From Escherichia coli (GTDB lineage: Bacteria > Pseudomonadota > Gammaproteobacteria > Enterobacterales > Enterobacteriaceae), in NCBI RefSeq assembly GCF_003334405.1, contig NZ_QOWM01000009.1: 64,000 nucleotides of DNA; one strand, written 5' to 3'. Positions 3,307 through 60,444 of the stretch are shown here, piece by piece. A program made the translations under genes and the position numbers. The notes under the pieces are model-generated. The model made no database searches. It saw nothing but the letters and a program-made list of their open reading frames with translations, and was not told the origin of the DNA. Numbering within the stretch: position 1 is the first letter of the stretch; each line of letters begins with the position of its first letter.

Positions 3307-4247
3307 GCGTGCGCTCCTTCATGACGACGAATGCGCGGGTCCAGCGCGGCGTTGAGCAAATCGACAATCAAATTACAGACCACAAAAACCACCACCATCA
3401 TCAGCGTAAAGCACTGGATCACCGGATAGTCACGGTTAAAAATCGCCGACACCGCATAGCGCCCGACGCCCGGCCAGGCAAAGATGTTTTCGATAATCAT
3501 CGTCCCGCCAATCAGTTCGCCGATATGCATCCCCACGGCGGTGATCATCGGCAGCGAGGCATTGCGCAGGATGTGGCGACGTTCGGTCTGTTTGTCGTTC
3601 AGGCCGCGCAGACGCGCCCAGGTGACGTGACGCTGACCGGCGACGTCCAGCATACTGGCGCGCAGTAAACGCGCGTTAATCGCCAGCGACATAAAGGCAA
3701 TGGAAACCGCAGGCAAAATGATGTGCTGCCAGCCGCCGTAACCCATCGCGGGTAGCCATTGCAGATACACCGAAAACGCCATCACCAGTAAAAACGCCAG
3801 CCAGAAGTTAGGCATCGACACGCCAAGAAACGCGATGAAACGTACGGCGAAATCCGGCAGACGGTCGCGATGGCGCGCCGCCCAGATACCGAGCGGTACG
3901 GAAGTGAGCAGAATTAATACCAGCGCCGCACCTGCAAGTTCCAGCGTGGCGGGCAGGAAGTTCAGCATATCGTCCAGTACCGGGCGTTGGCTGGCGAATG
4001 AGATACCAAAGTCAAGATGCAGCGCCTTCCACAACCAGGTGCCGTACTGGACGTACAGCGGCTGATCCAGTCCCAGCATGGTGCGGGTAGAGGCCAGCAT
4101 CTCCGGCGTCGGCGGCAGGTTAGACAGACGCAAATAATCGAGCGCCGGGTCGCCGGTACCGAGGCGCAGCATCAGAAAAATGATCACCGAGGCGGCGAGC
4201 ACCATCGGGATCAGCAGCAGAAAGCGGCGTAATACGTAACGCAACAT
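3303..4247 (-). CDS. nikB: Nickel ABC transporter permease
   Basis: 314 aa multi-TM permease; operon position between nikA and nikC. Confidence 0.9.
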
Positions 4248-5821
4248 TAAGGTTTCACCGGTTTAATCTGTTCGAACGGAATTTCGGTGGCGATCGGCGC
4301 GTAGGGGATGTTACCCAGCTCCGGTTTTGATACCACCATCATTGAGATGTAACTGATAGGCAGATAAACCGCCTCGTCATGCAGACGGGTCAGAATGTCG
4401 CGATACAGCGCCTGACGTTGCGTTTCGTCATGGGTCGCCAGCACTTCGCCGATCTCTTTATCAATCAGCGGTTTGTCGGCTAATCCTTGCTGTGCCTGGA
4501 AGTCAGCGTGTGACGGTACGCGCATTGAACTGAGGAAGGCGTGTGGATCATATGGCGCGCCCCAGGTGCGGTGGAAAATCATGCCAAAACGACCGTCGCG
4601 CTGACGAGCATAGATACTGCTCTCTTCTTCGCCAATCAGCGAGACATCTGCGCCAATCTGGCGCATATCAGCCTGAATGATTTCCGCCATCGATTTGCTT
4701 AACGCATCGGTGCCGATGAACGAAAGTTCAATGCGCAGCGGCTGACCATTTTTCTCGCGGATGTCTTTGCCCGCAGGCAGCGTCCAACCGGCTTTTTCCA
4801 GCAACGCTTTCGCTTTTTGCGGATCGTACTGGCTCGGTTTCAGGCCGAGGTTGGCGTAGGGCACAGAAGGGGCAAACAGGGTGTCGGCGACCTGCTGGGT
4901 GCCATACAACGCGTTATCAATCAGCGATTTTTTGTTTACCGCGTAATTAAGAGCTTCACGTACTGCCAGCTCGTTGGTGGGGGCTTTGGCGGTATTGAGC
5001 GCCAGCATCACGGTTTCGATCGGCTGTGACAGTTGGGTGTGGTAAGCCGGATTCTGGCTAAAGCGGGCGAAGGTATCGAGCGGTAATAACCCTTCGTTTC
5101 CGTACAGCAGGTCGATATCGCCAGTTTCAAACGCCACCGCGCGGGTAGTCGGGTCCGGGATGACGTTAAAGGTGATCTTTTTAATCGCTGGCTTTTCGCC
5201 CCAGTAGTTTTCGTTACGGACGAAGACATCGTACTGATTCAGTTTCGATTCCTGCAAAATCCACGGTCCGGTGCCAATCGGCGCTTTAATTCCGTTCATG
5301 GTTTCATGGTTTTTAAACTGCGAGGGAGCGATAAAACGGAAAGGACGGGGCAGGGCCAGTTCTTGCAGGAAAGGATAGTAGGCGCTTTTCAGGGTAATTT
5401 GCAGCTCTGTTTTACTGAGTGCTTTAACATCAACAATCTGGTTTGCCAGCTCCAGCCAGGCGTGACGTTGACGGTTATCGAGCACTGCGCGGAAGTTTTC
5501 TGCCGCCGCCTCGGCATCGAACGGTTCACCGTTGGAGAATTTCACGTCATCACGCAGGGTGAAGGTCCAGGTTTTACCATCTTCTGAATGAGTCCAGCTT
5601 TTTGCCAGCCACGGGATCACCGAACCGTCTGCCTGATATTTCACCAATGGTTCATAAACCATGCTCTGGGCGAACATCTGGTTAGGCGTGTAAAGGTGCG
5701 GGTTTAGTGGCCCGACATTCACCGGCCAGGCGGTGGTGATTTCATCTGGTGCAGCGGCATGGACGATAAAAGACGCACAAGCCAGCAGCGCAAATAGAGT
5801 GCGGCGGAGTGTGGAGAGCAT
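4247..5821 (-). CDS. nikA: Periplasmic nickel-binding protein
   Basis: 524 aa; N-terminal signal peptide [24 protein letters not shown]; family 5 solute-binding protein fold; NikR operator immediately upstream. Confidence 0.93.
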
Positions 5822-5858
5822 GGTAACCCCAATGGATTAAAATAGATGGCGGAAATAA

Positions 5859-5886
5859 GTATGACGATTTTAAGTATTCGTCATAC
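5859..5886. promoter_or_regulatory. NikR operator (GTATGA-N16-TCATAC dyad) in nikA promoter
   Basis: Exact GTATGA cgattttaagtattcg TCATAC read at 5859-5886, 38-65 bp upstream of nikA start codon. Confidence 0.8.
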
Positions 5887-5931
5887 TGATTACCTGTTCT
5901 GGATCAATAGATGGGCAGTCGGGTGGGCGGA

Positions 5932-6519
5932 TCAGTTAACTGAATCGATCCATTGCACACTGTCGGCGGTGAGCGTAAAGGGAGTAGGGGTGCAGATCGC
6001 AAGGCTTAAATTTTCAAGCTGACAATGGCTGACTGACAGCGAGGAGTGATAGGTGCTGTCTACGCTGACGATTTGCCAGGCGCTGCCGCCACGCTGTTTA
6101 ACGATGGCTTCTTTGCGCGTCCAGATGCGCCAGAACATTTCCAGTTGCTGATCAGGATGCACGGCGTCCATCTCAGCGTGTTCCCCGAGGCTGAATACGG
6201 CGTTCGCCAGCCAGCGCCAGTTGGCGCGCGGGCGAATCACTTCGATATCGCAGCCGACTTCGCCTTCATCACTCAACAGCAGGGCGATATCGTCACCGCT
6301 ATGGCTTAAGTTGAACCATAGCGGCATTTCCGGCGCAAATGCAGGTTTGCCTTGTTCGCCATAGATGATCTCCGGTAGCGGGGAAAGCGTGTGCGAAAGC
6401 AATGCACGCCCCGCCAGCCAGCGTTCGCGTCGTGGACCTTGCGGTGCTTGCTCGCGTAAACCCGGTGGCAGTGGAGCTGCGCTTAAGGTCGAAACTTTCC
6501 CCAGAACTATCCGATACAT
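5932..6519 (-). CDS. acpT: 4'-phosphopantetheinyl transferase (holo-ACP synthase family)
   Basis: 195 aa ORF; PPTase-like sequence; K-12 position between nikA and yhhT. Confidence 0.85.
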   Translation of the reverse strand: MYRIVLGKVSTLSAAPLPPGLREQAPQGPRRERWLAGRALLSHTLSPLPEIIYGEQGKPAFAPEMPLWFNLSHSGDDIALLLSDEGEVGCDIEVIRPRANWRWLANAVFSLGEHAEMDAVHPDQQLEMFWRIWTRKEAIVKQRGGSAWQIVSVDSTYHSSLSVSHCQLENLSLAICTPTPFTLTADSVQWIDSVN

Positions 6520-15095: not shown

Positions 15096-15244
15096 GATAA
15101 ATTGCTCAATCCGCCAGATAACACATACTTGCAGGCGGTGATGTGAATTAAGTTAAGTGATAGACTATTTCATCATTTTTTTAGCTGCTATGTACATAGC
15201 GTTAACGCTGTGCCATGAAGCAACAGCGAGGAGTGTAGTCGCAA

Positions 15245-43046: not shown

Positions 43047-43640
43047 TTACCCCTTCATCCACATTCGAATGCCGTCGAGGAACATCTGGGTTGCCATCAT
43101 CACCAGAATCAATCCCATCAGGCGTTCAAGTGCGTTCACCCCTTTCTCGCCCAGCAGACGTAAAAATAGCGAAGACTGTAGCAGGATGACAAAGGTGCCG
43201 CCCCAGGCCAGCAGCAGAGCAATCACCAGATGCCCCATCTGATTCGGGTACTGATGAGACAACAACATCAGCGTGGCGAGAATAGTCGGCCCGGCGACTA
43301 ACGGAATTGCCAACGGCACGATAAATGGCTCTTCACCTGCCGGAAGCCCGCTGCTATTTCCTGAAGCGCTGGGGAAAATCATTTTAATGGCGATCAGAAA
43401 CAGAATGATGCCGCCAGAAATGGAGACGGTTTCTGCTCGTAGGCTAAGAAATGCCAGAATTTTCTCACCCGCAAACAGGAACACCAGCATCACCAGGAGA
43501 GCAATAAGCAACTCTCGCACCATGATTGCCCGCCGTCTTTTCGGTTCAGTATGTTTCAGTACGGACATGAAAATAGGTAGGTTTCCGAGCGGATCCATAA
43601 TCAGGATCAATAAAACTGCTGCAGAAATGATTTCATTCAT
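43047..43640 (-). CDS. yhgN: MarC-family inner membrane protein
   Basis: 197 aa hydrophobic ORF. Confidence 0.85.
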   Translation of the reverse strand: MNEIISAAVLLILIMDPLGNLPIFMSVLKHTEPKRRRAIMVRELLIALLVMLVFLFAGEKILAFLSLRAETVSISGGIILFLIAIKMIFPSASGNSSGLPAGEEPFIVPLAIPLVAGPTILATLMLLSHQYPNQMGHLVIALLLAWGGTFVILLQSSLFLRLLGEKGVNALERLMGLILVMMATQMFLDGIRMWMKG

Positions 43641-58864: not shown

Positions 58865-60444
58865 TCCTGCACGGCTTCCCACGTCAGACCAAAACGCGCC
58901 AGGTATTTGCGTAGCCGATCCGCGTCATTGACGCTGGCTTTGCCCTGGCGCGAAACGTCAAAAAGCTGGCGTCCGGCTGCGGAAAGCGACTTTGCCTGGC
59001 GGCAGATAGCGATAACGTGTTCCAGTTGCATACGGTCGAAGAGATCGATGTTTTCTGCCTCTGCGCCCAGCAACGCCGTAAGCGCGGAGGGGCGGCTCTC
59101 CTGCCAGTTATAGCGCAGACGGTTTATCTCATCTTCAACCACGTCCAGAGTGATGCGTCCGCTAGTGGCAAAGGTGGCCATCCGCGTGACGCTGGCAGAA
59201 AGTTCGCGAAAGTTACCGCGCCATGTTGCCTGGGGAGAGGTCGCAAAAGCCAACCAGGCGCGCCGCGCTTCGGTGTTAAAACGCACGCTGTCGCCAGTGA
59301 GTGAGGCGTGGCGCTCCACTTCATAATCCAGGTTCGGTTCAATATCTTCCTGGCGCTGGCGTAGACCCGGCAGGGTGAAGGTCCAGAGATTGATCCGCGC
59401 GTACAGATCTTCGCGAAATTTGCCTTCGGCAACCAGCTGGCGCAAATCGCGCACCGTTCCGGCGATAAGCTGAAAATCACTGCTCACCTGGCGATCGCTG
59501 CCAAACGGGTAAAAGGTTTTCTCTTCAATGGCTTTCAGCAGCATTGCCTGTTCGTCTGCGCCCAGTTCGCCAATCTCATCAAGAAACAACATTCCGCCGT
59601 TGGCGCTGCGTAATAAACCTTCACGAGATTCCCGCGCCCCGGTAAACGCGCCTTTTACATGACCAAACAGCGTCGACATGGCGGTATCGCCGCGCAGGGT
59701 GGCGCAGTTCACTTCCACAAACGCGCCGCTAAACTGATGCCGCGCCTGTTTTAACTCGAAGATGCGTCGCGCCAGAAATGACTTGCCCGCGCCGGTTGGA
59801 CCGTTAAGCAGAATCGGCGCGCGGGATTTGATCGCCACTTTTTCGATCTGCTCAATCATGCGGTTGAAGTGGGGGTTACGCGTGGCAATGCCGGACTTAA
59901 GAAAATCAAGCGTTTGCTGGCGTTCCTCGGCAAAGCGGCTGGCGATGGCGTTATAACGGCTTAAATCGAGATCGATAATCGTTACTTCACCTGGGCCGCG
60001 CGGCTGTTCTTTTTTGCGCGGAGGTGAAGATTGTATCAGCCGGGCGGGCAGGTAACGCGCTTCTGCCAGCAGAAACCAGCAAATCTGCGCGACGTGGGTA
60101 CCGGTGGTGATGTGAATTAAATAGTCTTCTTTTTCTGGCTGAAACTCGTAACCACGGGCGAAATCATGCAGGCAGGCGTAGACCTCTTCGAAATCCCACG
60201 GGTTATGCAGTTCAATCTCAACGCTCACCACTTCTGTTTCTGGCGAAACGCTGGCGATATCGCGTTTAAGCGTTTCAAATAGCGAGCGCGAGCGGGCGTC
60301 GTGCAACAATTCCAGTCGATCGATGACCAACGATTCTTGCTGGCATAAACAGAGTGTCGGACGCCATTTTGACCAGCGCTGACTGCCGCGCCCGGCATAA
60401 TCCAGTACGGTACCGACAAAGCCAAAAGCCACTGTTTTACGCAT
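58846..60444 (-). CDS. rtcR: Sigma54-dependent transcriptional activator of rtcBA
   Basis: 532 aa; AAA+ Walker A GPTGAGKS and GAFTGA sigma54-interaction motif; 19-bp convergent overlap with glpR 3' end. Confidence 0.93.

Follow-up and report, generated by a model that had tools for sequence, protein, structure and literature searches.

The imperfect FNR site next to the NikR operator in the Escherichia coli nikABCDE promoter

The FNR site that seemed to be missing from the nikA control region is the imperfect TTGATccagAACAG, which had already been noticed in the first-pass annotation of this DNA and which occupies the standard activator position, immediately ahead of the NikR operator. The nikABCDE promoter is very probably a sigma70 promoter of class II, activated by FNR, which the NikR operator overlaps. 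It is a long-studied two-input case, in which oxygen is read via FNR and nickel via NikR; the locus, both regulators and the position of the FNR site (-40.5) are already published, and nothing in them is new. The lesson of the case is that an FNR site may be real, occupied and conserved and yet fall under genome-wide matrix thresholds, and that such a low-scoring site can still be placed confidently by its geometry relative to the -10 hexamer and by cross-species footprinting. What the present analysis contributes below is the sequences and their geometry, the ranking by matrix and the conservation across species; the in vivo occupancy by FNR, the FNR-dependent expression and the position of the start site are taken from the literature.

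The window, that is, the whole stretch of 64,000 nucleotides that was analysed, is E. coli K-12-like. By blastn it corresponds as a whole to positions 3,555,488-3,619,487 of MG1655 in reversed orientation (99.96-99.98% identity), and the identity is 100% over 601 bases centred on the nikA/acpT intergenic region. The 768-bp IS1E insertion found in yrhA of MG1655, ~29 kb from the nikA promoter, is absent from the window, so the source strain is not MG1655 despite the high identity. Nine bases common to both blast segments (~35284-35292) look like the target duplication of IS1 in one copy. Around the nikA promoter, a stretch of 401 bases was matched in all 5426 complete E. coli genomes, with the flanks annotated as acpT and nikA, and the part from 5850 to 5915 is unchanged in 5141 of these genomes. 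Conversion of published coordinates was anchored on the current MG1655 record, in which nikA starts at 3,613,667; the offset from version 2 to version 3 of the genome was taken to be +1977 bp, an assumption that is self-consistent here.

The control region (5822-5931, 110 bp) lies between the first base of the nikA ATG (5821, minus strand) and the acpT stop codon (5932). Read in the sense of nikA, the acpT stop is followed by 24 nt, by TTGATCCAGAACAG (5907-5894), by 7 nt, by GTATGAcgaatactTAAAATcgTCATAC (5886-5859) and by 37 nt that include a Shine-Dalgarno-like GGGG run and end at the ATG; nikB-E and nikR come next in the same orientation. The features are collected in Table 1. GTATGAcgaatactTAAAATcgTCATAC had been read in the first-pass annotation as an exact NikR operator, and correctly so: the pattern GTATGA-N16-TCATAC has its sole match in the 64-kb window here and none in 100 dinucleotide-preserving shuffles, and the dyad is the published sequence and consensus of the E. 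coli NikR operator (PMC7055735). Ni-dependent binding of NikR and repression at nikA are known from the literature (PMC7055735, PMC9434800), and the double character of the promoter, NikR-repressed and Fnr-dependent, is restated in PMC9434800.

Table 1. Features of the nikA control region and its flanking genes, in window coordinates
Feature	Position	Strand	Basis
nikA CDS, first gene of nikABCDE-nikR	4247..5821	-	ORF list and RefSeq annotation
TACTTAT, exact NarL heptamer (TACYYMT) overlapping +1; candidate site only	5855..5861	-	Sole exact heptamer in the intergenic region
NikR operator GTATGA-N16-TCATAC, spanning -26 to +2	5859..5886	.	Exact and unique; half-sites conserved across loci
Transcription start (A), inferred; 39-nt leader before ATG	5860	-	7 nt past the -10; start that Myers' -40.5 implies
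-10 hexamer TAAAAT within the operator spacer	5867..5872	-	TAnAAT in 69/69 distinct orthologues; -10 role inferred from start-site spacing
Gap between FNR site and NikR operator, 7 nt, of invariant length and unconserved sequence	5887..5893	-	Enterobacterales loci with operator; columns low in information
Nominal -35 AGGTAA, poor match to TTGACA	5890..5895	-	Hexamer unconserved among orthologues
FNR binding site TTGAT-CCAG-AACAG, 8/10 consensus positions, centre 5900.5 = -40.5	5894..5907	-	PWM, ChIP-seq, conservation
acpT CDS, upstream neighbour, outside the control region	5932..6519	-	ORF list, RefSeq; no FNR-like site above 1.7 bits inside

No perfect TTGAT-N4-ATCAA is present in 5822-5931. 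The best FNR match of the interval is TTGATCCAGAACAG on the minus strand, with two mismatches that both fall in the second half-site. The first-pass annotation, which had seen no convincing FNR box here and had described its best candidate as poor in the second half-site, is borne out on both points. For nikA, the strand called reverse there is the sense strand, and the FNR site has its natural orientation upstream of the gene. The caution shown there towards the 14-mer taken alone was justified as well: matches to the FNR consensus with two mismatches occur in the window at chance frequency (37 vs 29 ± 5 expected), so a plain consensus search at this tolerance is not discriminating.

The interval and its surroundings were scanned with a weight matrix, as the first-pass annotation had proposed. 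The matrix was symmetrised and derived from the 63 sites that were both predicted and located under a ChIP-seq peak (Myers 2013, PMC3688515, Table S6); the nikA site is absent from this training set. Over 5700-6200 the top score belongs to 5894-5907 (9.48 bits, ln p -9.19), and no overlooked high-scoring FNR site came to light. The runner-up, at the acpT stop codon, reaches 1.67 bits, and the rest of acpT never scores positively; an FNR site inside acpT was rejected on the strength of these values. Among all 63,987 positions of the window 5894-5907 ranks 13th, with about 6.5 matches at its p-value expected by chance. Sequence alone leaves it unremarkable and is no proof of an FNR site.

Myers 2013 (PMC3688515) reports just two FNR ChIP-seq peaks in this interval, nikA and asd/yhgN, and each of them coincides with one of the 13 top matches in the window; of the remaining eleven matches, eight are inside genes. 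The sequence TTGATCCTGATTAT (43597-43610, 10.2 bits) lies ~36 nt inside yhgN and 8.5 nt from the centre of the asd/yhgN peak (3,573,122), the sole other one in the 64-kb interval. Another FNR-like 14-mer, GTGATGTGAATTAA (11.4 bits), occurs twice, at 15138-15151 (ftsY/rsmD intergenic region) and at 60107-60120 (inside rtcR), with no published FNR ChIP peak at either copy.

The published in vivo data place FNR at the nikA promoter. In Myers 2013 (PMC3688515) nikABCDE is assigned to Category 1 (directly FNR-activated) with one site at -40.5, and the FNR peak at nikA was found by all four callers (three for ChIP-seq and one for ChIP-chip). The ChIP-seq summit (3,611,605) maps to position 5906 of the window, inside TTGAT. 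The best matrix match in this peak has ln p -9.55, weaker than the cut-off of -10.75 used in the same work for genome-wide prediction, which explains why a consensus-minded reader would reject the site. Among the 208 ChIP peaks with a matrix value in Table S5 of Myers 2013, the nikA site nevertheless belongs to the top 29% (stronger than 71%). An independent ChIP study (Federowicz 2014, PMC3974632) reports Fnr regions that cover the site upstream of nikABCDER and are marked "Activation, Known". As for expression, nikABCDER is listed as FNR-activated in Myers 2013 (PMC3688515), whose Table S12 gives an aerobic/anaerobic nikA transcript ratio of 0.030 (~33-fold lower aerobically), and the sigma70 ChIP peak at nikA (3,611,651) rises from 69 to 1897 anaerobically.

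It is extremely improbable that the functional FNR site is a different one, for instance in the 3' part of acpT or at a more distant, class I position upstream, and that the match of TTGATCCAGAACAG is coincidental. Such a reading could appeal to the chance frequency of two-mismatch FNR-like sequences in the window and to the peak centre given in Table S5 of Myers 2013 (3,611,593, PMC3688515), which corresponds to position 5918, 17.5 nt from the motif centre. However, every other 14-mer in 5700-6200 scores 1.7 bits or less, the summit itself is on TTGAT, and the 7-nt distance between site and operator is kept in most Enterobacterales loci despite a different neighbour and unconserved sequence upstream. 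It is just as hard to believe that the control of nik by FNR is indirect, exerted through another regulator or through nickel demand on a promoter with no functional FNR site. The original genetic evidence was indeed expression-based, for nikA, Myers 2013 (PMC3688515) enters 'None' under previous direct evidence that FNR binds, and base-level proof at nikA (a footprint or point mutants) may not exist; but FNR is found at the promoter in two independent ChIP data sets, and both the class II geometry and the strong conservation of the site speak for direct activation from TTGATccagAACAG.

The geometry of the promoter agrees with this assignment. The -10 hexamer begins 28.5 nt downstream of the centre of the FNR site (5900.5), and this centre lies at -40.5 if transcription starts at 5860. 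Comparison with the nik start site, also suggested in the first-pass annotation, thus returns the value given in Table 1 of Myers 2013 (PMC3688515), with the start at 5860 resting on both literature and inference: the table of Myers takes its start sites from EcoCyc or Kim et al., and the geometry described here supplies the rest. The sigma70 ChIP peak maps exactly to 5860, the inferred start site; nikA is unmentioned in the supplements of the start-site profiling study (Kim 2012). A consensus scan of 5700-6200 for sigma70 promoters and terminators returned no two-hexamer sigma70 promoter and no terminator. The lack of a consensus two-hexamer promoter and the weak -35 fit activator dependence of transcription, while the scan itself does not place the start site. 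The hexamer TTGATC was considered as a -35 element and rejected, being 29 nt away from the -10.

The conservation of the region was examined by a NikA scan with one genome per species, which yielded 80 loci; an ungapped alignment of 69 distinct Enterobacterales sequences upstream of nikA was anchored on the operator. Wherever an Enterobacterales locus has a recognisable operator, exactly 7 nt separate it from the best FNR-like 14-mer upstream, and in 69/69 sequences the 14-mer at this fixed offset is the best of the entire 143-nt stretch. The mean matrix score at this offset is 10.25 bits, compared with -20.4 at the other offsets (n=69). TTGAT is intact in 67 of the 69 sequences. In the promoter-proximal half-site A13 is invariant (69/69) and position 12 holds only pyrimidines (C in 52/69); these are the two most informative positions of the FNR matrix, and positions 10, 11 and 14 vary. 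At least two mismatches to the consensus are present in 60 of the 69 lineages, all of them in the promoter-proximal half, with variants such as AACAG, AACAC, CTTAC, GTTAC, CTCAA and others. T occupies position 12 in 17 sequences, 16 of which have T at position 11 too. The conserved island starts abruptly at TTGAT and continues through the operator, including the -10 hexamer (Table 1), and the sequence upstream of it is unconserved.

The upstream gene is acpT in only 8 of the 80 fetched loci, and the site is still 7 nt from the operator. The constancy of this offset means that the FNR site is part of the nik promoter rather than of acpT. The first-pass annotation had left two options, a degenerate site or a site elsewhere, possibly in the acpT 3' region. 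The former has stood, with a sole candidate 14-mer at -40.5, under the ChIP summit and in a fixed position; the latter has fallen, with 1.7 bits at most in that region and with acpT as a neighbour in so few loci.

The N4 spacer CCAG (5899-5902) is nearly as conserved as TTGAT itself (C 66, C 60, A 54 and G 55 of 69). This is unusual for a nominally free N4, the more so while the promoter-proximal half-site varies, and it could be explained if the conserved block TTGATCCAG were, wholly or in addition, the target of a second factor, either another protein of the CRP/FNR family or a nitrate-responsive regulator. NarL-dependent repression of nik has been reported without a defined site, and Table 1 includes a candidate NarL heptamer. 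Its pattern is kept in 23/69 orthologues, a 7-mer being too short for significance, and MotifAdjuster places nikA among the promoters without a detectable NarL site, none being predicted or defined there (PMC2718512). A second factor on TTGATCCAG appears very unlikely: three of the four spacer bases (C6, A8 and G9) are preferences of the FNR matrix, only FNR among the known motifs fits the block, and FNR occupancy in ChIP is explanation enough. The simplest reading is that the site is an FNR site whose spacer conservation may compensate for the weak half-site, as these bases are preferred by FNR. Even taken jointly, a site elsewhere, indirect control by FNR and a second factor on TTGATCCAG remain improbable.

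A related and rather doubtful suggestion is that the imperfect promoter-proximal half-site is a selected design and not drift, conferring either low affinity for FNR or a composite site shared with a second regulator, e.g. nitrate/NarL. Were the low-affinity version true, nickel uptake would be switched on only at full anaerobiosis.

Two Escherichia loci depart from the common arrangement. In Escherichia sp. MOD1-EC7003 (locus L003, NZ_PTRE01000013.1) a ~112-nt repeat (~1365-1479) inserted in the nikA leader separates the intact FNR/NikR promoter from the ribosome-binding site and lengthens the 5' UTR of nikA from 39 to ~150 nt. The repeat resembles an ERIC/IRU element. In Escherichia sp. E1V33 (locus L001, NZ_RHJI01000001.1) NikA is 99% identical and the promoter is rearranged (~1141-1470): tandem GC-rich repeats of ~120 nt (TCCCCTCGCCCCTCTGGGGAGAGGG...) stand in place of the region with TTGATCCAG, and neither the left half-site for NikR nor the TAAAAT -10 is present. 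Since these elements are lacking, the regulation of nik in this lineage may be lost or rewired.

Taken together with the published data, this arrangement best supports the textbook account of how the two inputs are combined. Under anaerobiosis dimeric [4Fe-4S]-FNR binds TTGATccagAACAG, centred at -40.5. As the promoter has a good -10 (TAAAAT) and no usable -35, FNR would recruit RNA polymerase by direct contact, and transcription would start ~39 nt ahead of the nikA ATG. When nickel is sufficient, Ni-NikR binds the dyad from -26 to +2; since the dyad contains both the -10 and the start site, NikR should block the polymerase whether or not FNR is bound. The promoter would then follow AND-NOT logic, being active under anaerobiosis unless the cell is nickel-replete. 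We infer the occlusion step and the contacts between proteins in this scheme from general models of class II activation and promoter occlusion.

The closest known system is the nikABCDE promoter of E. coli K-12 (Myers 2013, PMC3688515). It is the same locus, the operator, the FNR position and the ChIP summit agree, and there is no difference of substance. Outside Enterobacterales, GTATGA-N16-TCATAC with at most one mismatch is found upstream of nikA in six loci of other Proteobacteria (L065, L067, L068, L069, L072 and L074), which belong to Rhizobiales, Halomonas and an unclassified Proteobacteria MAG (L067). None of these six has an FNR-like site at the 7-nt offset, the best scores being -3.8 to 3.7 bits. 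The presence of the NikR dyad without an FNR-like site in these bacteria suggests that the oxygen input is a later, lineage-specific addition; judging from the sequences, the FNR module appears to have been added in Enterobacterales to an older NikR-controlled promoter.

Another promoter of the same kind is that of dmsA, whose FNR site is TTGATaccgAACAA at -41.5. The class II promoter of dmsA and that of nikA share an FNR site centred near -41.5, a perfect promoter-distal TTGAT, a promoter-proximal half of the AACAx type and a weak -35. The best match at dmsA (ln p -10.34; Myers 2013, Table S5, PMC3688515) is also under the -10.75 cut-off, and a site at -41.5 ± 4 is found in 19 of the 23 FNR-activated promoters with a known start site (Myers 2013, PMC3688515). 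In contrast to dmsA, the nikA promoter carries the operator of a metal-responsive repressor directly downstream of the FNR site, overlapping both the -10 and +1.
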